Part shown: positions 19,385-59,596 of the stretch, piece after piece
Position numbering within the stretch: the first letter of the stretch is position 1
Layout: each line of letters begins with the position of its first letter
NCBI GenBank assembly: GCA_040289295.1
Contig: PSLA01000001.1
Location: forward strand, 33,287 to 97,286
Reading direction: 5' to 3'
DNA length: 64,000 bases
Source of the DNA: Armatimonadota bacterium
GTDB taxonomy: Bacteria > Armatimonadota > Fimbriimonadia > Fimbriimonadales > ATM1
Notes under the pieces: generated by a model
Seen by the model: the letters and a program-made list of their open reading frames with translations, nothing else
The model's database searches: none
What the model was told of the DNA's origin: nothing
Program-made: the position numbers and the translations under genes

Positions 19385-21940
19385 ATGCTTCCAATGATGT
19401 GCCTCGCGGTCGCCGTATACCTTCTTATCACCCCAATCCTCCCCCTTTGGGAGAGGGCCGGGGTGAGGGAGCCCCCCCTCTCCCTCTGGGAGAGGGCTGG
19501 GGTGAGGGAGCTTTTCGCCCTAACGACGGCAGCAGAGGGTCCCCCTCCCCCTTTGCGAAAGCGTTGTGGCGAGCGCCCTACATGCCTGCAAGACCTGCTC
19601 GCCGAAGCACGAGCCGCGGAGCATGAGGGGAAGACGGCGGAGGCGATACGGCTTTATCGCGCCTACTTGCGCGAGCACCCCGACGAGTTCATCGCACTCT
19701 ACAACCTCGGAGCGCTGCTGATCCGCACCGGGCAGCCCAACGACGCGCTGGAGGCTGAGCCGAATCGCCTGGAGCCGCGGATGGCACTCGCCAACGCGTA
19801 CCTGCTGCTCAACGAGCCGCTGACGGCACTGGAGGTTCTGCGACCGGCGGAGGCTACTGGGGCAAACGTTCCGGAGTACTGGAGCCTGCGTGCCGGAGTG
19901 GAGGCCTCGATAGGCGACGGGGCTGCCACCGCGTCCGCGCGCCGAGCAAAGAGCCTGGCGCCGAAGCGCTTTGACCTGGCTATGCAGGCTGCCGCGATCT
20001 TCGTCGCCTTCGGCAAGCACGCGGAGGCGGCGGACGCCTACAGGGACGCAGCGCTTCTGAGCCCTGGCGACCCAGCGCCCGTGCTCGGAGAGGCCCGCGT
20101 TCTGATTGCCATGGGCAACCCACAACAGGCTGCGGAACTGTGCGAGTCGGCGTATTCTCGCTTTCCGACCAACGCCGAGATCGCCGAGCAGCATGCGCGG
20201 GCACTGCTGACGCTGAGCCGTGCTGAAGATGCCCTGAGTGTGTTGGATGCGGCGCAGGGTCGTGGGGTAGACCGACTGTCGTTGGCGGTGGCTCGCGCGG
20301 AGGTTCTTCAAGCCCTCCAGAGGCATAGCGAGGCGCTTCGCGCGCTCAATGAGGCACTCGAGAGCCGACCGGACGACACGCGCGCTCTGGCGGCGCGATC
20401 GCGACTGCACCTCCTCTCGAAGCGATACAAGGAAGCAGAGCGAGACGCGGACATGGCGATGCGCGTTGCCCCGCGGTGGCGGGAGGCGTACCTTCTCGCG
20501 CTCGAGGTCGCCCGCGCACAGAACAAGTCCCACGCGGAGGAGGTAATTCTACGCAACTGGATCGCGAATGCACCGGAGCAGCCCGAGGCTTATCCAATTC
20601 TTCTCCAGATTCTCCTAAAACGAGAAGCATGGTCGGAAGTCGGAGTGCTCGCGGACTTCTATCTGAGAATTCGGCCCAACGACAAAGAGGCGCTCGGCAT
20701 GCTGGCGCAGGCGTTTCTGGGAAGCGGAGACGTCGGGACAGCCATCGAACGCCTGAACGCCGCCTTCGCACGAGGCGTCGAAAGCGAGCAACTGTACCTC
20801 TACCTTGCTTTGTGCTATCGTAAGCAACAGTCCGCCGCAGAGGCGATTCGCGTGCTCGAAACGCTTGTGCGCAAGTATCCCAACTCCGAACGAGGCTGGT
20901 CGTTGCTGGCGACGATTCAGGAGCCGCAACGCCCCGACGCCGCGCTCGTTGTGTATGACCGGATGCTTGCGGCGCTACCTGGCAACCTGGAAGCGATAAA
21001 GGGACGCGCGCGGATGCTGAGCCGGTTGCAGCGCCACGAAGAGTCGGCACGCGAGTGGATCCGCCTCGCTGAGTTGCAAGGTTCAAAGGGGCCGTACTAT
21101 TTCGCCGCGATGGAGTGGGCAGCCGCAGGCAAACCGGAGCAAGCCGACGCGATGTTCGCGCGTCTCCGAGATCAACACAAAGAGGATGTGGACCTGTTTG
21201 TGGTTCACGCGCAGTACCTCGCCGATTCGGAGCGACTAGACGAAGCGCTGACTGTTTTCAAGGGGATAACGCACATCGCCCCGACCGACCCTCGGGGCTA
21301 TCTCGCCGGTGGACGCGCGCTGGTGGACCGACACCGACCCGATGCTGCGATTGACCTCCTGCTCCCCGGTGGCAGACATCTCTACAAAGACTTTCAATAC
21401 TTCCGACTGCTCGAAGAAGCGGCGCTGAAAGCGCAAAGGCCTGATGTCATCGCCACCGTGACGGAAGACCTCGTTGAGCGAGGGCTGTTTTCTCTGCCTA
21501 TGGTTGTCGCGTATGTGAACGCACAAGCGCGCAAGAAGGCCATCGCAGCCGCCATTGCGCGCCTCGAGCGAGCAGCGAAGGACCATCCAAACGAGATGGC
21601 TGTTTTCTTCGGCTTGGCACGAGCCAAGGCGTTGAACAACGACGGAAAAGGCGCACTGGAGGCACTTGACCGAGCTGTTGACCTGGCCCCCTCCGACGTG
21701 GAAGTGCTCCAGGTGTATGCCCAAGCAGCCGAGGCGGCGCAGGACCCCCAGCGAGCCGCTCGAGCCTACGGGCTACTCGCCGTTGCGCTGCCGAACGACT
21801 CACGCTACGTTCTCAAGCAGGCGGGCTACCTCAGGGAACTGGGGCGAAAGGACGAGGCCATCGCCGTCTTGCGGCAGGCTCGCGATCGCTTCCCCAATGA
21901 CAGCGAGATTGTCGAGATGCTCCGCGCGCTCGGCGGCTGA
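19385..21940 (+). CDS. Large TPR-repeat protein
   Basis: Many TPR-like helical repeats (AIRLYRAYLREHPDEFIALYNLGALL and others). The start is uncertain. The first ~45 codons after ATG 19385 include two repeat copies, and the real start could be downstream (for example TTG near 19553). Confidence 0.72.
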   Translation: MLPMMCLAVAVYLLITPILPLWERAGVREPPLSLWERAGVRELFALTTAAEGPPPPLRKRCGERPTCLQDLLAEARAAEHEGKTAEAIRLYRAYLREHPDEFIALYNLGALLIRTGQPNDALEAEPNRLEPRMALANAYLLLNEPLTALEVLRPAEATGANVPEYWSLRAGVEASIGDGAATASARRAKSLAPKRFDLAMQAAAIFVAFGKHAEAADAYRDAALLSPGDPAPVLGEARVLIAMGNPQQAAELCESAYSRFPTNAEIAEQHARALLTLSRAEDALSVLDAAQGRGVDRLSLAVARAEVLQALQRHSEALRALNEALESRPDDTRALAARSRLHLLSKRYKEAERDADMAMRVAPRWREAYLLALEVARAQNKSHAEEVILRNWIANAPEQPEAYPILLQILLKREAWSEVGVLADFYLRIRPNDKEALGMLAQAFLGSGDVGTAIERLNAAFARGVESEQLYLYLALCYRKQQSAAEAIRVLETLVRKYPNSERGWSLLATIQEPQRPDAALVVYDRMLAALPGNLEAIKGRARMLSRLQRHEESAREWIRLAELQGSKGPYYFAAMEWAAAGKPEQADAMFARLRDQHKEDVDLFVVHAQYLADSERLDEALTVFKGITHIAPTDPRGYLAGGRALVDRHRPDAAIDLLLPGGRHLYKDFQYFRLLEEAALKAQRPDVIATVTEDLVERGLFSLPMVVAYVNAQARKKAIAAAIARLERAAKDHPNEMAVFFGLARAKALNNDGKGALEALDRAVDLAPSDVEVLQVYAQAAEAAQDPQRAARAYGLLAVALPNDSRYVLKQAGYLRELGRKDEAIAVLRQARDRFPNDSEIVEMLRALGG
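19437..19469 (+). repeat. Family-1 repeat, copy b1 (degenerate left arm)
   Basis: TCCTCCCCCTTTGGGAGAGGGCCGGGGTGAGGG. Confidence 0.8.
19476..19508 (+). repeat. Family-1 repeat, copy b2
   Basis: CCCTCTCCCTCTGGGAGAGGGCTGGGGTGAGGG, 6 nt after copy b1. Confidence 0.9.
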
Positions 21941-52777: not shown

Positions 52778-53481
52778 GCCGCATCCCCAACGCGTGCCTG
52801 GTAACGGGAGCCAGCAGCGGTATCGGCCGTGCGGTGGCGCTTTGTCTTGCGCGACGAGGCGTGCACGTGGCGCTCAACGGGCGCAACCGGGAACGACTTG
52901 AACAGACCCGTCAAGCCTGTGCCGAAAGCGGCGTGGATGCGTTCGCTGTTGATGGCGACGCGGCCGACGAGGCGGTACTGCGCGAGCTCTTACTCCTCTT
53001 GCCGGAAGGGCCGATTGGAGCCGTCTTCGCCGCGGGCTACGCCCGTTTCGGTGATACTCTGTCGCTCGAAGCCGAAGTCTGGGACTCCAGCATTCACGCC
53101 AACCTAACCGCACTCTATCATGGCAATCGACTTGCGATTGAGGGCATGCTTTCTCGGGGCGGAGGGCGCATCTTGAACGTCTTGAGCGTGGCGAGCAGGG
53201 TCGCGTTCCCCTCCTCGGCGGCGTACGTCGCTTCGAAGTACGGCGCGCTCGGACTCACGCGGAGCCTCGCGGCTGAGTTTCGTTCGCGCGGGATCGAAAT
53301 CATCGCCTTCATGCCCGGCTCAACCAACACCGAGTTGTGGAACAGCCAGGGCGCGGCGCCCGACCGCGAACGCATGATGAAACCGGAAGACGTCGCCACC
53401 GCGGTGGCGAACGCGATCCTGCACGAGGGCGACGCTTTCTTCGACGAGGTGCTACTAATGCCTCCGGGGGGGGTGTTGTGA
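52774..53481 (+). CDS. Classical short-chain dehydrogenase/reductase (sepiapterin-reductase-like candidate), inferred CTG start
   Basis: [10 protein letters not shown] (52804-52833), NVLSVAS and YVASKYG (YxxxK). The first canonical start, GTG 52834, would remove the cofactor-binding motif. Confidence 0.78.
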
Positions 53482-54509
53482 TGCGGGTCGGCATCATCGG
53501 CGCAGGAGCTATGGGGCGGACGCACGCGCGGCACTATTCGAAGATGGACGACGTCTCCCTCATCGTCTTCGACATCGAGCGCGAGTCCGCGGAGTCGCTT
53601 CGAAGCCAAGCGGCGAACGCCAGCGTTTGCAACAGCCTCGATCAACTTCTGTCCAGCGTGGACGCGGTTGACGTCTGCCTGCCTACGCATCTACACAAGG
53701 AGGTCGTCCTCACGGCGCTCGAAGCGAAGCTACCCACCCTCTGCGAAAAACCCCTCGCGCGCACCGTTGCCGAGTGCGCCGAGATGGTGGATGCGGCGTA
53801 TCGCCACAGCACGTTGCTCATTCCCGCGCAGGTCGTCCGCTTCTTCCCGGAGTTCGAAACTGCGCACAGGGTCGTTAAGTCGGGGAGATTGGGTGTCATC
53901 TCTGCCATACGAACGCGACGGGGCGGCGCGCAGCCCAGAGGCGCAGGCGAATGGTTCCGCAACCCAGACCTTTCGGGCGGAGTCCTGTTGGACCTCGCTG
54001 TGCACGACTTCGACTGGATTCTGTGGACGTTTGGGCCTGTCGCGCGAGTGTTCTCTCAGGCACTGACCTGGTCGAACGTCGGCGCGCTGGATTACGCGCT
54101 GACGATTTTGACCCTCGATAGCGGCGCGCTCGCCCACGTGGAGGCGACATGGGCAGATCCGGGCGGCTTCCGAGTGACGTTCGAGGTCGTCGGTTCGGAG
54201 GCGCTCCTCGAGTTCGACAGTCGGCTGAAGGCCACGCTGCGAACGGCCACAGACCCCCTCTCCCTGTGGGAGAGGGTTGGGGTGAGGGCAGCTGAGTCCA
54301 ACCTTGCGCCGTGCGACGATCCTTACTTCAAGCAACTGCGCGCGTTCTTGAAGGCAGCTATGGGAGAGGCGCCTCCCGCCGTTCGTCCTGAGGAGGGAAT
54401 GGCCGCCGTGGCAGTTGCGGAGGCGGCGATCGAAAGCGCATGCAGCGGCAGGCCTGTGGCCCCCTCGCGAATCGAACCCCGGCGAACTGCCGAGGCGTCT
54501 GAGATCTGA
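53481..54509 (+). CDS. Gfo/Idh/MocA-family oxidoreductase (contains one in-frame repeat copy)
   Basis: [19 protein letters not shown] Rossmann motif and the CEKPLA motif. TGATG overlap with the SDR stop. Repeat-encoded segment [15 protein letters not shown]. Confidence 0.8.
   Translation: MRVGIIGAGAMGRTHARHYSKMDDVSLIVFDIERESAESLRSQAANASVCNSLDQLLSSVDAVDVCLPTHLHKEVVLTALEAKLPTLCEKPLARTVAECAEMVDAAYRHSTLLIPAQVVRFFPEFETAHRVVKSGRLGVISAIRTRRGGAQPRGAGEWFRNPDLSGGVLLDLAVHDFDWILWTFGPVARVFSQALTWSNVGALDYALTILTLDSGALAHVEATWADPGGFRVTFEVVGSEALLEFDSRLKATLRTATDPLSLWERVGVRAAESNLAPCDDPYFKQLRAFLKAAMGEAPPAVRPEEGMAAVAVAEAAIESACSGRPVAPSRIEPRRTAEASEI
54256..54292 (+). repeat. Family-1 repeat, copy c
   Basis: CCCTCTCCCTGTGGGAGAGGGTTGGGGTGAGGGCAGC, inside the oxidoreductase ORF. 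Confidence 0.92.
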
Positions 54510-56977
54510 TGATGCTCCTCCCTTTCGCGCTCCTTCTGGGGCAAAGCACCGAGCCGTCAGGGGTCTGGCAAGGTCAGGAGTGGCGTGTGAACCCGGCGCA
54601 CGCGTTGATTTGGGATGGTCGCGCGTACACGCCGGTGGGCCTGGCAGTGCCGGCAGCGACGGAGGCGATCCGCAAGGCGGAAAGCGCGGGTGTTAAAGAC
54701 CTTATGATCGAGGCAAGCCTAACCGATGATTGGGCGGCTGCGTTCGCTGCGGCGGAGCGTCTGTCCGCTCGCTACCTGTTGTCCCTGAACGAGCGTATGC
54801 CGCAAGCCTCCGGATGGCTGTGCACACCCGAGGCATTACGGGTTCTGAACGTCAGTCATCGTTCGGTGGTGGAGGTCGCATTGCCGGGCGCAGTGCGGGC
54901 GTACTTTGTGGTCGTTGGACCGTCGTCTTCCATCATGGCGCGTGGCTGGGCGACGATGCACTTCGGCAAGGCCTCCGTGGAAGTGAACCTGAAGGTTAGC
55001 GCGGACGACTACCAGGTGCTTCTCTTCCCACTGATGCGAGAGAGCGACCTCGTGGACTATTGGGAGGGGCTGGACGCAAGGCGCGACGAAGTAATACGAA
55101 AACTGAGGGACGCTGCACCAGGAAAGGGGCTCCGCGGCATAGTAAATCCGTTTGGCCGACCCCCGTCTCACTTCCTCTCCCTGCGGGAGAGGGTTGGGGT
55201 GAGGGCAGCAGACGGCTGGACGACGTCCGGCGGGATCGTGCCCGATTCTATTCTGTTCCGCCTCGAGTTTGAACAGTATCTTCGGGAGAAGTATCAGACG
55301 ATCGAGGCGCTCGCACGCGCATGGCGCATTGACCCGCTGGGGCTCAAGACTTTCGCCGAGGCCGCGGCGCTGATTCCACTCTTCTCACCCGACATGGGCG
55401 TGGACGCGTTCCTCGACCCAGTGAACGACCGAACCGTCTCCGGCCGCCGGGTTGGATCAAGGTTCTGGGACGACGTGCAAGTGGTCATCGAGAGCGCGTG
55501 CGTTCGAAGGCTTTCTCGACTTGCTTCGGCGACTCGGAGCATCGCCAACGTGCCGGTAGTATACGACTGGGCTGGCTGGAGCCCCCTTCACGAGCGGCGA
55601 GATATCGCCGGCGACGGCATTGGTATCCCTACCGTAGGCGCGGGGCGGACCATAGACTCCCTCTCCCTGTGGGAGAGGGTTGGGGTGAGGGCAGCAGACG
55701 CTCTGTCCTCCGCGCTGGCGTGGGGGTCGCGATCGTGGATCGTAAGCACGCGCATCTGCTTTTCAGAAAACGGCGCACCCTTCCCAACCGAGGCACAGTT
55801 GCGCTCGGTGATTGCAGCGCTCGTGGACCTTGGCGTGAAGGGGTGGTTCGTGGAGAGCACGGGAGGAGACGAGGCAGTGTGGGTGGCTGCGATGAACGGT
55901 GAGGCGCAGCAGGACCTCGCTCTGGGGGACCGCTCTCCGCGCGCCATCTTCTATCCCATCAACGCTCGTTACCCGGCGGACACGATGCAACTCCCTGGCG
56001 GCGTATGGTGGCTTCCCACTCCGGCTGCAGGCGATAGGCTCGATGTGGGTGCGAACTATGAAGCGTACCGCCTCACCGCGCCCTATGATCGGCATATCGC
56101 CATCTGGACGACTGGCGCTCCGCGAAAGACGAAGCTGCTGACACCTAACCCTCAATCTGTAACGCTGCATTCGGTTTCGGGAATGGCTGTTGACGCACGA
56201 GTGGTGCGCGACGGCATAGAGGTTACGATTCGGAATGAGCCGCTGCTAATCTTCGGCGCGGACACGACGCCCGTTCCCGAGGACGCAGTTCAGGAACTAG
56301 TAGAGGCGGAGGCTGCGATTACGGCGGAGGCTGTGCGCAAGGGCGCCGACATTACTGAAGAGCGTTTTCTCTTCGCCGACGCGTTGCGCAAAGCGAAGAC
56401 GTCGCCCGGAGCATCGCTGATGCAGATGACAGAGGCCTATCGCCGAATGCTGCTTAAGGTCGCGCCGTACGTCTGGCGAGAAGGGGAGCGGGCGGACTCG
56501 GCAGGGTTGGGTGTTCGAATGCAGTCAGCGGGCTGCTCGCAGGGAGAGGCGCTGCGGCTGCGGCTGGCCATTCCAGCGCGCTTTGTTCAGGTGGACGGCC
56601 GCGACGGGTTCAATGGAATGAGGGCAGTGTACAAGCTGTCTGTATCCGGCAGCCGCGACGAGCACACGGTGTGGTTGGCTGCGAGGATCCCGGAAGAGTC
56701 TCGACCTTTCGTCCGCGTCGAGGTCAAGGGAGACTCCCTCTCCCCGTGGGAGAGGGTTGGGGTGAGGGCAGCACTGTCCGCACCGCCGGTTTCCGAATAT
56801 GGCGATGGATTCGGGTGGTACCAAGTTGGGACGATGCTCCTACCGAAAGGGGAGTATGAGTTCACAGTTTCCATGGACCCAGGCGCGCCGGTGATGGACA
56901 TGGCGATTGACGTGTTGTTGGCTACGCCTCAACCGTTCCGGCCGTCCGGCCCGCGGATGCCGAGGTTCCTTCGATAG
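54509..56977 (+). CDS. 822-aa secreted/exported protein of unknown function (three in-frame repeat copies)
   Basis: The 2.47-kb ORF is stop-free, whereas antisense ORFs here are under 140 aa. Signal-like N-terminus MMLLPFALLLGQS. TGATG overlap with the upstream gene. No motif I recognise. Confidence 0.6.
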   Translation: MMLLPFALLLGQSTEPSGVWQGQEWRVNPAHALIWDGRAYTPVGLAVPAATEAIRKAESAGVKDLMIEASLTDDWAAAFAAAERLSARYLLSLNERMPQASGWLCTPEALRVLNVSHRSVVEVALPGAVRAYFVVVGPSSSIMARGWATMHFGKASVEVNLKVSADDYQVLLFPLMRESDLVDYWEGLDARRDEVIRKLRDAAPGKGLRGIVNPFGRPPSHFLSLRERVGVRAADGWTTSGGIVPDSILFRLEFEQYLREKYQTIEALARAWRIDPLGLKTFAEAAALIPLFSPDMGVDAFLDPVNDRTVSGRRVGSRFWDDVQVVIESACVRRLSRLASATRSIANVPVVYDWAGWSPLHERRDIAGDGIGIPTVGAGRTIDSLSLWERVGVRAADALSSALAWGSRSWIVSTRICFSENGAPFPTEAQLRSVIAALVDLGVKGWFVESTGGDEAVWVAAMNGEAQQDLALGDRSPRAIFYPINARYPADTMQLPGGVWWLPTPAAGDRLDVGANYEAYRLTAPYDRHIAIWTTGAPRKTKLLTPNPQSVTLHSVSGMAVDARVVRDGIEVTIRNEPLLIFGADTTPVPEDAVQELVEAEAAITAEAVRKGADITEERFLFADALRKAKTSPGASLMQMTEAYRRMLLKVAPYVWREGERADSAGLGVRMQSAGCSQGEALRLRLAIPARFVQVDGRDGFNGMRAVYKLSVSGSRDEHTVWLAARIPEESRPFVRVEVKGDSLSPWERVGVRAALSAPPVSEYGDGFGWYQVGTMLLPKGEYEFTVSMDPGAPVMDMAIDVLLATPQPFRPSGPRMPRFLR
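55173..55213 (+). repeat. Family-1 repeat, copy d
   Basis: TCCTCTCCCTGCGGGAGAGGGTTGGGGTGAGGGCAGCAGAC, inside the 822-aa ORF. Confidence 0.92.
55654..55699 (+). repeat. Family-1 repeat, copy e (bounded by AGAC on both sides)
   Basis: AGAC-TCCCTCTCCCTGTGGGAGAGGGTTGGGGTGAGGGCAGC-AGAC, inside the 822-aa ORF. Confidence 0.92.
56736..56772 (+). repeat. Family-1 repeat, copy f
   Basis: CCCTCTCCCCGTGGGAGAGGGTTGGGGTGAGGGCAGC, inside the 822-aa ORF. Confidence 0.92.
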
Positions 56978-56999
56978 GTTCCGCACGCAGTCTCGTACT

Positions 57000-57032
57000 C
57001 CCTCTCCCTGCGGCAGAGGGTTGGGGTGAGGG
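57000..57032 (+). repeat. Family-1 repeat, copy g (intergenic, between the convergent 822-aa ORF and ftsZ)
   Basis: CCCTCTCCCTGCGGCAGAGGGTTGGGGTGAGGG. Confidence 0.9.
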
Positions 57033-57056
57033 GAACACGGATGCGTTGCGTTACAC

Positions 57057-58325
57057 TTACGACTCCTCTCGCTGCTGCTTGTGCTTGCGGATGAACGCGG
57101 GCACGTCGAGGTCTTCCGGTTGTGTTGACGTTCCGTCCTGCTTTGCGGGGCGAGGGACACCCGTTGCCGGCGCGGTTCCGGGAGGCAAGCTGTTGCCATC
57201 GGTTGCGGCGCGCTCGGTCGCAGGCTGGGGCGTACCGGCGCGCTGATGTACACGCTCGCTCTCTGCGGACGTGGTGGCGCTGGATTCGCGACCCCCTCTC
57301 CCTGTGGGAGAGGGTTGGGGTGAGGGCAGCAGACGCCCCGATTCCGTTCCGGCGGCGCGAGGTGGTCGGGCGGTCGGGTCAAAACCAGCGGCGAGGACGG
57401 TAATGCGGACGTCGCCTTTGAGGGCGTTGTCATACACTGCGCCGAAGATGATGTTGGCGTCGTCCGCCGCCGCAAGGTCTGCGATGTAACTCATCGCCTC
57501 ATTCATCTCCGCTAAGGTGAGGTCCTCCGCGGACGTAACGTTGACGAGGAGTCGGCGTGCGCCGTGGATGTCGCTTTCGAGCAGCGGGTTGGCGACGGCA
57601 GACTGCGCGGCCTGCATCGCACGGTGCTCGCCAGTGCCAATTCCGATGCCCATCAAAGCGGGGCCAGACTGGGACATCACGGCTCGCACGTCTGCGAAGT
57701 CCACGTTGATGAGGCCCGGCACCGTGATGATCTCAGAAATCGCCTGCACGCCTTGGCGCAGTACGTCATCGGCAACGCGAAACGCCTCGATGGTGGATGT
57801 GTGCTTGTCAACTACGGCGAGGAGCCGGTCATTGGGAATAGTGATAATCGTGTCGACGATTTCGGTTAGTTCGGCAATTCCCTTTTGTGCTTTGATTTCG
57901 CGCCCCCGTTCCCACATGAAAGGCTTTGTCACAACGGCGATGGTAAGCGCTCCGACATCCCGGGCGAGCTCCGCGACGATCGGCGACGCTCCGGTTCCGG
58001 TTCCGCCCCCCATACCGGCGGTGATGAAGACGAGGTCCGCGCCGGCAAGCACATCGCGGATCGCTTCTTTGCTCTCTTCGGCTGCTTGCCTTCCCCGTTC
58101 GGGATCGCCTCCCACTCCGAGCCCCCGCGTTACCTTTTCTCCGACTTGGAGTTTCACAGGCGCCTGCGAGTCCTCGAGCGCCTGGGCGTCGGTGTTGATT
58201 GCGACGAACTCGACGCCTCGGACCCCAGTTTCGATCATGCGGTTGACGGCGTTGGAGCCCCCTCCGCCGACGCCTACCACTTTGATTACCGCTTGTCTTT
58301 CAGTGTTCTGCTTCGTTGCACTCAT
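57057..58325 (-). CDS. ftsZ: Cell division GTPase FtsZ
   Basis: [23 protein letters not shown] and the C-terminal peptide [10 protein letters not shown]. Confidence 0.95.
57294..57334 (+). repeat. Family-1 repeat, copy h (inside the ftsZ linker-coding region, antisense to the gene)
   Basis: CCCTCTCCCTGTGGGAGAGGGTTGGGGTGAGGGCAGCAGAC. Confidence 0.92.
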
Positions 58326-58357
58326 GGTGTTGTTTCACTCCTATTATGAAATGGTGG

Positions 58358-59596
58358 TCAAGGAATATCCTCTCTGCTTTTCGATCCGAGAACCGAGCCT
58401 ATGGCGTTCATAAGACGGCGGATGCCCTTCGCTTCCGAGCCTTCTCGCTTGGTCGCCACACTCTTTTGTGCGTGCTTGAGCAAGCCGACAATAGCGGCGT
58501 GCTCATAACTGCTCACAACGTCCCCCAGCCCGTGCAGCGGCGTCGGCTTCGCCACGCGTATCGGTGTGTCGCGGAAAATACGCGCTGCGAGGCGGTCCAG
58601 CCCCGTCAGTGCGGCGCCCCCGCCGGTCAGCACGACGCCTGCGTTCAGGTCGTCAAAAGATGCTATCTGTTCAATCCAGTCGCGGACGAGCGTAAGGTTC
58701 TCCTCTGCGCGGGCTTCGATGATCTCACAGAACACGCGACGCGCCATGGGCCTGGGCTTCTCGGAGCCGATCTGCCTCACGAGCACCGCCTCCTTCTCGC
58801 GGGCATCCGCGGGCACGCAGGAACCCGCCTGAAGTTTGAGTCTTTCGGCCTCTTCGGGAGTCGTCTTCAGAAGTTTCACCAGGTCTGAGGTGATGTGTGA
58901 ACCGCCAATCGGGACGATGCACGAGTTGGTGATGCCGCCCTGGCGGAACACGGCGACGTCGGTCGAATACCCGCCGATGTCTACAACAGCACAGCCCGCT
59001 TGCCGATCGCTTGGCGCGGTTACGCTCTCGCTGGTGGCGAGCGGCTGCAGCACGACGTCCTCGACTTCAATCTGCGCTCGATTCACACAGCGCTCGATAT
59101 TCAAAATGTGAGACTTTAGGCCAGTGACGAGGTAAGCCTCTACCTCGAGGCGCTCGCCGTTCATGCCGACGGGCTTCGTCACGCCAGCCTGGCCGTCCAC
59201 TTTGAACGAGACGGGTACAACGTGCAGTAATTGCCGCTCGGCGGGAATGGGGATGTTCTCGCTGTGCTTAATGACGCGGTGAACGTCCTCGTTCGTAATG
59301 GTTCGCCCCGGAGGCACGATCGGAACGATGCCCGGACTGCGCGTTCCCGTGATGTGTTCTCCGGTAACGCCCAGCACCACGCTGTCGAGTTTACGATCCG
59401 CCATCTGCTCGCATTGGCGAACCGCTCGAAGAATCGCCTGCGCCGTCGTTTCAATGTCAACGACGGTGCCGCTTCGCACGCCGTCGTTGGGCGCCGAGCC
59501 CACAGCGAGAACGCGGAGCAGCCCGCTTTCCTCAACGTCTGCGAGCGCTACCACGACTTTCGTGCTGCCGATGTCCATTGCGGCGACTTGGCTCAT
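58358..59596 (-). CDS. ftsA: Cell division protein FtsA
   Basis: MDIGSTKVVVALA..., VVDIGGYSTDVAVF, actin-like fold. Position upstream of ftsZ. Confidence 0.9.
   Translation of the reverse strand: MSQVAAMDIGSTKVVVALADVEESGLLRVLAVGSAPNDGVRSGTVVDIETTAQAILRAVRQCEQMADRKLDSVVLGVTGEHITGTRSPGIVPIVPPGRTITNEDVHRVIKHSENIPIPAERQLLHVVPVSFKVDGQAGVTKPVGMNGERLEVEAYLVTGLKSHILNIERCVNRAQIEVEDVVLQPLATSESVTAPSDRQAGCAVVDIGGYSTDVAVFRQGGITNSCIVPIGGSHITSDLVKLLKTTPEEAERLKLQAGSCVPADAREKEAVLVRQIGSEKPRPMARRVFCEIIEARAEENLTLVRDWIEQIASFDDLNAGVVLTGGGAALTGLDRLAARIFRDTPIRVAKPTPLHGLGDVVSSYEHAAIVGLLKHAQKSVATKREGSEAKGIRRLMNAIGSVLGSKSREDIP

Follow-up and report, generated by a model that had tools for sequence, protein, structure and literature searches.

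How does a cell division gene come to carry a copy of a dispersed repeat within its reading frame, and what allows the copy to stay there? This question is raised by the ftsZ gene of an uncultured Armatimonadota (Fimbriimonadales-like) species, in which a 33-nt repeat lies inside the part of the gene that encodes the C-terminal linker of the protein. The DNA analyzed here, called the window below, is a stretch of 64 kb from a genome assembly (MAG) of 2.06 Mb in 51 contigs, with 61% GC and 97.7% completeness. The features of the ftsZ locus are the following.

57057-58325, minus strand: ftsZ coding sequence, from the open reading frame (ORF) list; 422 aa, adjoining ftsA
58358-59596, minus strand: ftsA, with ftsZ directly downstream
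57114-57377, minus strand: FtsZ C-terminal linker, residues 317-404, beginning after the end of FtsZ_C at residue 316
57294-57326, plus strand: BoxC/TM core inside ftsZ, CCCTCTCCC-TGT-GGGAGAGGG-TT-GGGGTGAGGG, matching the family consensus exactly (33/33)
57285-57338, minus strand: segment missing from close FtsZ relatives in DNA and protein alignments; codons 330-347, 18 residues
57084-57113, minus strand: conserved C-terminal peptide (10 aa), residues 405-414, intact and in frame past the insert

The repeat copy in the FtsZ linker

The predicted protein has all the features of an FtsZ, namely a GTPase domain, FtsZ_C, a disordered linker and the conserved C-terminal peptide. Pfam placed the Tubulin/FtsZ GTPase domain at residues 14-172 (9.4e-47) and FtsZ_C at residues 221-316 (1.9e-28). 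A search of the window with the 33-mer CCCTCACCCCAACCCTCTCCCACAGGGAGAGGG gave an exact match at 57294-57326 on the minus strand, and, read in the ftsZ frame, the copy corresponds to 14 residues (331-344, window positions 57335-57294). It is laid out as a 9-bp hairpin with a third, G-rich block after it, and the ftsZ mRNA bears the C-rich complement of the repeat's plus strand. The original prediction had described such a copy in the linker, just past the globular core and upstream of an intact C-terminal peptide, with a second copy downstream of the ftsZ stop, and all four points hold. The distances given with them do not: the copy starts 14 residues after AAGFD (counted from 316) and not about 20, and the second copy lies 24 nt and not 25 nt past the stop. 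The description was correct, and these differences of counting are trivial.

We used AlphaFold2 on the FtsZ alignment to characterize the surroundings of the insert. Residues 323-407 have pLDDT values below 50 and no secondary structure, and a helix is predicted at residues 410-421. As the insert falls within the low-confidence stretch, it is placed inside the disordered C-terminal linker. The insert lengthens this linker from 72 to 88 aa.

Orthologous ftsZ was found in all 40 relatives searched (three congeners, here named G001, G002 and G003, and 37 more distant genomes). The FtsZ of G003, which belongs to the same genus, is 90% identical to the one studied here. At the position of the linker copy the DNA of G003 and G002 lacks ~46-48 nt while the flanks align cleanly, G002 being compared via two contigs that jointly carry the gene; at the position of the post-stop copy both show a gap of ~55 nt. 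Three FtsZ homologues from a large protein collection (P0001-P0003), with 82-87% identity and a length of 406 aa each, have a single clean gap exactly opposite the 18-residue segment (alignment A1), and the C-terminal 10-aa peptide is conserved across the aligned relatives. A comparison of the middle segment gave a difference of 48 nt, so that the net insertion in ftsZ is 48 nt (16 codons), with borders uncertain by a few bases. In summary, the segment is absent as a clean in-frame indel in five of five close relatives (G003, G002 and P0001-P0003), which is the outcome that had been proposed as a check on the insertion, and a homologous linker segment was found at this position in none of the five. 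By these DNA and protein alignments, the ftsZ linker carries a genuine in-frame BoxC-type insertion, and the observation is confirmed.

The genome also encodes a second, shorter FtsZ-like paralogue (G000:C10:33482-34492, where G000 is the host genome), with ~56% identity over the core; second matches are present in most of the 40 relatives searched as well.

A local mis-assembly or consensus error, by which a short high-copy repeat was stitched into ftsZ, would produce the same picture. The element is indeed multi-copy with a GC-rich hairpin, the assembly of G002 breaks exactly at the ftsZ site, and the assembly at this site rests on a single MAG contig, since an exact-protein look-up returned no record of the 422-aa FtsZ in other assemblies. 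Against this, no stop interrupts the reading frame across the insert, and the conserved C-terminal peptide beyond it is still in register. In unrelated genes on 13 contigs, at least 25 other copies are likewise in frame, and 33 nt is less than the k-mer length with which assemblies are usually finished. With an uninterrupted frame and at least 25 parallel cases elsewhere, we allow mis-assembly the slimmest chance of the readings considered.

The break in G002 falls inside ftsZ, ~12 nt upstream of the insertion site (between the end of contig C98, locus L003, and the start of contig C91, locus L031). The two contig ends share just a 5-nt overlap (CAACC) and, when joined, read as an empty site. 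At the break density of this assembly (roughly one in 10 kb), the probability that a break falls by chance no more than 30 nt from the site is ~0.3%. The G002 population may be polymorphic for insertion at the ftsZ site.

Identity and multiplication of the repeat

The repeat unit consists of a 9-bp hairpin, CCCTCTCCC-N3-GGGAGAGGG, followed by NN-GGGGTGAGGG. Elements named BoxC, PIT or TM (Bergler 1992; Bachellier 1990s; Hoyne & Maher 2000) have been known since the 1990s and are found in hundreds of genomes. Comparison of the ftsZ copy (CCCTCTCCCTGTGGGAGAGGGTTGGGGTGAGGGC) with copy 1 of TM_ECO from Escherichia coli K-12 (CCCTCTCCCTGTGGGAGAGGGCCGGGGTGAGGGC) showed that 32 of 34 positions are identical and that the 2-nt spacer alone (CC/TT) differs. 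The three-block layout of the ftsZ copy agrees with Table 1 of PMC4666352. Judged by sequence, the repeat is the known BoxC/PIT/TM_ECO family, an intrastrand triplex motif; this identity had been missed in the original prediction.

TM_ECO is the sequence earlier named BoxC and PIT (Holder et al. 2015, PMC4666352). According to the same study, the consensus is 34-37 nt long, the motif is present in >260 genomes, and the 23 copies of E. coli K-12 are "always located intergenically". A TM oligonucleotide formed a stable triplex in vitro, neither promoter nor terminator activity was found for the elements, and no transposase or integrase was found near the loci; local genome variability is raised at TM-bearing loci, and comparison of E. 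coli strains shows frequent deletion of copies (PMC4666352).

The element studied here shares with this family the order of the three blocks (CCCTCTCCC, loop, GGGAGAGGG, 2-nt spacer, GGGGTGAGGG), its multi-copy state, both orientations, the lack of an associated transposase, and a wide, patchy spread across phyla. Its first block is pyrimidine, the second is the purine complement of the first, and the third is G-rich; a single strand of the element could fold as a hairpin or as an intrastrand triplex. It differs from the family in E. coli in two respects: its location is not restricted to intergenic regions, at least 26 copies being in frame in genes, and its density is ~57 copies per Mb, compared with ~5 per Mb in E. 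coli K-12.

Within the window we found seven copies with at most three mismatches, while dinucleotide-preserving shuffles predicted none. The copies outside ftsZ, and the ORF that hosts three of them, are listed below.

57000-57032, plus strand: second repeat copy, 2 mismatches, past the TAA stop of ftsZ
54509-56977, plus strand: ORF of 822 aa, no Pfam match, convergent with ftsZ
54256-54288, plus strand: in-frame copy, 12 residues, near the 3' end of an oxidoreductase-like gene (53337-54509, plus strand)
19437-19508, plus strand: two adjacent, more diverged copies (19437-19469 and 19476-19508)

Six same-orientation copies make up a hot spot of 3.1 kb (54256-57334), five of them within coding sequence. 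The sixth, the post-stop copy, lies in the 79 nt that separate ftsZ from the convergent 822-aa ORF. The 822-aa ORF contains three in-frame copies (55173-55205, 55659-55691 and 56736-56768), which read LSL(W/R)ERVGVRA, and its mRNA would contain the G-rich strand of the repeat, with four G-runs. Its orthologues in G003 and G002 (~79-82% identity) lack the copies, with net differences of 24 and 27 nt, and 48 nt with respect to G002 at site 1; the copy of the oxidoreductase-like gene is likewise missing in both, with a net difference of 24 nt. An Rfam search of 54000-58500 matched no family, even at E<=1. We also considered a terminator role for the post-stop copy and rejected it, as both a T-run and a terminator-like match are absent at 57000-57032.

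Genome-wide, 77 copies of the 33-mer with at most five mismatches and 117 hairpin cores were counted, spread over at least 24 contigs and on both strands. The full pattern with at most two mismatches occurs 75 times in this genome, compared with 0 in G003, 0 in G001 and 5 in G002. Among the 37 more distant relatives, 35 are without the pattern and the other two have one and five copies. The repeat burst is specific to this lineage, with ~117 copies compared with 0, 0 and 5 in the congeners, and is new. Copy identity is unusable as a clock for it, since the motif is nearly identical in E. coli.

Two variants and one unusual arrangement were also observed. Tandem arrays of hairpin cores without the GGGGTGAGGG tail are present at G000:C30:4663-4780, C45:24513-24608 and C7:47253-47351, with 3-4 units, a period of ~32-36 nt and subfamily-specific spacers such as TTTTCCTCACT. 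In a longer variant, the purine arm and the GGGTGAGGG block are separated by an additional small hairpin (GGCCGAAGGCC or GGCCGGAGGCC), as at G000:C7:14023-14075, C7:58552-58600 and C32:14973-15020. Finally, an ORF at G000:C2:84699-86609 has inverted element pairs at both ends (two elements at 84899-84990 and two at 86374-86465), with an interior of 1.4 kb that, by eye, is glycoside-hydrolase-like and not a transposase.

The distribution among relatives bears on the direction of the change in ftsZ. If the element were ancestral in the linker and had been deleted in the relatives, no insertion would have taken place in this lineage. Deletion of TM copies between E. coli strains lends this idea some support, as does the degenerate copy that G003 retains at two other sites (the nnr gene and site 1 of the 822-aa ORF). 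The five FtsZ relatives, however, are all cleanly without the segment, G003 and G001 have no copy genome-wide and neither do 35 of the 37 distant relatives, and the empty ftsZ site of G003 is no more element-like than expected by chance (p=0.33). Ancestral presence is unparsimonious because it would need five independent clean losses, in copy-free genomes, and we give it a very slight chance.

Copies inside genes

To call copies intragenic, we used a codon-usage score trained on the long ORFs of the genome. With this score, 26 of the 117 cores fall in ORFs with at least 40 codons and a positive coding signal on both sides of the element. Under a looser gene call, predicted genes contain 53 of 131 copies. 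The intragenic share is ~22-40% of the copies, and ~87% of the genome is coding. Ten host genes were confirmed by Pfam, as follows.

RpoC: copy inside domain 3
TopA: copy inside the Topoisom_bac domain
DnaE: copy between the HhH and OB domains
SMC: copy in the hinge
GcvPA: copies at two sites
NuoE-like ferredoxin: copy inside the domain
YceG/MltG: host of a copy
Nnr: host of a copy
Xanthine-dehydrogenase-family protein: host of a copy
Acyl-CoA dehydrogenase: host of a copy

On these gene calls, at least 20 of the insertions are in predicted working genes, several of them housekeeping. The proposal that the linker tolerates the element stands, and the linker is not the sole type of site that does, as copies lie inside the Pfam envelopes of RpoC, TopA, SMC and NuoE.

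To locate the orthologous sites, we joined the surroundings of 19 insertion sites into one chimeric query. G003 lacks the full copy at 19 of 19 tested sites, and G002 lacks it at all 17 sites found there; at the two sites named above, G003 retains a degenerate copy. The net differences are 21, 24, 24, 24, 27, 30, 30, 30, 33, 33, 33, 36, 48 and 51 nt where a single element is involved and 66, 66, 81 and 93 nt for double elements; all net indels are divisible by 3. The element is stop-free in five of six frames, and the intragenic copies use all five, in both orientations. The peptides they would encode fall into the types LPLPxGEGxGEG, PHPNPLPxGEG and ALTPxLSxxER, plus two types of 11 residues. 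No relevant paper on these peptides, and no report of intragenic BoxC/TM copies, was found in the literature searched; an in-frame intragenic location is a behaviour new for the BoxC/TM family. The earlier suggestion that the element inserts indiscriminately and is then filtered by selection fits the use of both orientations and five frames, the intragenic share in a mostly coding genome, and the net indels in multiples of 3.

Such a distribution also bears on whether the copy was recruited for a function in ftsZ, either as an mRNA hairpin that would modulate translation or decay, as a template-strand triplex or G-quadruplex that would affect transcription or replication of the division cluster, or as a Pro-rich docking peptide. 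A hairpin is predicted in both strands, and the 9-bp GC hairpin in the ftsZ mRNA appears stable (~-27 kcal/mol in a 56-nt context), yet its fold z-scores are unremarkable (-1.3 to -2.0). The plus strand of the ftsZ copy has four G-runs and two copies flank the 3' part of the gene, which would suit a function; against it, numerous unrelated genes carry identical copies, which take either orientation and, between them, every open frame, and the relatives divide without the copy. In addition, no terminator-like site was found here, and elements of this type have shown no promoter or terminator activity (PMC4666352). We consider recruitment for a function highly unlikely.

The reading that we prefer, at a probability of roughly 0.85, is that a BoxC/PIT/TM_ECO copy, of a family recently multiplied in this species, was inserted in frame in the ftsZ linker and has been kept there by tolerance. 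One copy would have landed in the linker, adding a net 48 nt with the frame kept, and a second just past the stop. The linker copy is presumably transcribed and translated as part of FtsZ, and copies that break a frame or a fold would presumably be purged by selection. On this reading, the ftsZ copy survives because five of the six frames are free of stops, because a Pro/Ser/Gly/Arg-rich peptide suits disorder, and because the C-terminal linker, as a flexible tether, accepts changes of length and sequence. Tolerance of the FtsZ linker is established from linker-swap work in Bacillus subtilis and E. coli.

Insertion in frame is also met outside this phylum. Screening a single genome per species for the exact pattern returned at least 120 stretches, with Pseudomonas, Enterobacter, Variovorax, Planctomycetota, Verrucomicrobiota, Chloroflexota, Myxococcota, Acidobacteriota and others among the matches listed. 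Of 138 exact-pattern copies retrieved from other species, 19 lie within ORFs that extend for 100 codons or more to either side, and Pfam confirmed four of these as genes with domains flanking the element on both sides.

L141, Phycisphaeraceae MAG: lysyl-tRNA synthetase (LysRS), element between the OB and catalytic domains
L060, Polaromonas MAG: YgiQ radical-SAM protein, element in frame
L149, Acetobacteraceae MAG: CobN, element in frame
L150, Limisphaerales MAG: HsdR, element in frame, two or more copies

We put forward only tentatively, with the odds somewhat against it, the broader idea that BoxC/TM elements are cross-phylum protein-invading repeats that spread without an element-encoded transposase, copying of a structured single strand in repair or replication being one possible route.

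How the copies arise and what they mean

A target-site duplication had been proposed from "AGAC...AGAC" flanks, and this did not hold. None was found between filled and empty sites (G003 and G002) or in the alignment of 80 oriented copies, in which conservation ends 2-3 nt outside the 33-nt core. Net insert lengths vary between 21 and 51 nt. A length below that of the element, seen in many cases, implies that target bases were reused or were lost in small deletions. Profile searches of the genome for Y1_Tnp/RAYT (PF01797), RVT_1, TnpB Zn-ribbon, IS110 DEDD, rve and DDE_Tnp_1 returned no match, with control genomes positive every time, although this absence is weak evidence because 51-contig MAGs often lose insertion sequences. 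Mobilisation by a RAYT, as for REPINs, was considered and rejected, the 97.7%-complete genome having no Y1 transposase.

Empty alleles were compared with control windows for resemblance to the element. They resemble it more than the controls at 5 of 19 sites (combined p=0.006), two of which look like old degenerate copies; no such resemblance was seen at the other 14 sites, nor at the empty ftsZ site of G003. In nnr (G000:C8:14517-16217), a full element is present in this genome, a degenerate one in the opposite orientation (CCCTCACCCCGCACCTCTCCCTAAGGG) in G003 (L168), and none in G002 (L197). Site 1 of the 822-aa ORF likewise has a degenerate copy in G003 and none in G002. Together the two sites suggest recurrent insertion at preferred sites; taken by itself, the nnr site points to either recurrent insertion or an old polymorphism. 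The orientation of copies with respect to local GC skew gave an odds ratio of 0.47 (p=0.075), which is not significant, and the copies are clustered. As there is no target-site duplication, net length is variable and none of the six transposase and reverse-transcriptase families was matched, we infer that templated, repair- or replication-associated copying of a structured element is more likely than cut-and-paste transposition.

Several known systems resemble this behaviour in part. The closest behavioural analogue is that of the Rickettsia palindromic elements (RPE), which, as here, insert in frame, keep the ORF open and add an extra peptide. RPE, reportedly described by Ogata and colleagues in 2000, are said to be ~100-150 bp long, AT-rich and found in Rickettsia only; the element studied here, in contrast, is ~35 nt, GC-rich and cross-phylum, and has no sequence similarity to them. 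REP/REPIN sequences are likewise short GC-rich hairpin repeats, dispersed and in high copy, with lineage-specific bursts, but REPs are extragenic, no Y1/RAYT gene is found here, and REPs have no counterpart of the third triplex block. The small non-autonomous MITEs, such as Correia of Neisseria and Nezha of cyanobacteria, can lie in or beside genes, and a 2008 review by Delihas is said to describe repeats of the MITE type landing in or next to genes. Terminal inverted repeats and a target-site duplication of fixed length are MITE features, and neither is seen here.

The contrast between ~117 copies in this genome and 0 to 5 in sister species offers a setting in which to seek the factor behind copying, and comparison with the repeat-free congeners gives a direct way into the long-standing question of their multiplication. 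The absence of target-site duplication and of a match to the six families argue for an unconventional copying route.

In conclusion, the copy in the FtsZ linker is one clear example of the in-frame insertions of this lineage. The insertions add 7-17 residues per protein and thereby provide natural tolerance data for FtsZ, RpoC, DnaE, TopA, SMC and others. For FtsZ, an insert of 16 Pro/Ser/Gly/Arg residues in a linker of 72 residues agrees with the linker acting as an entropic tether.
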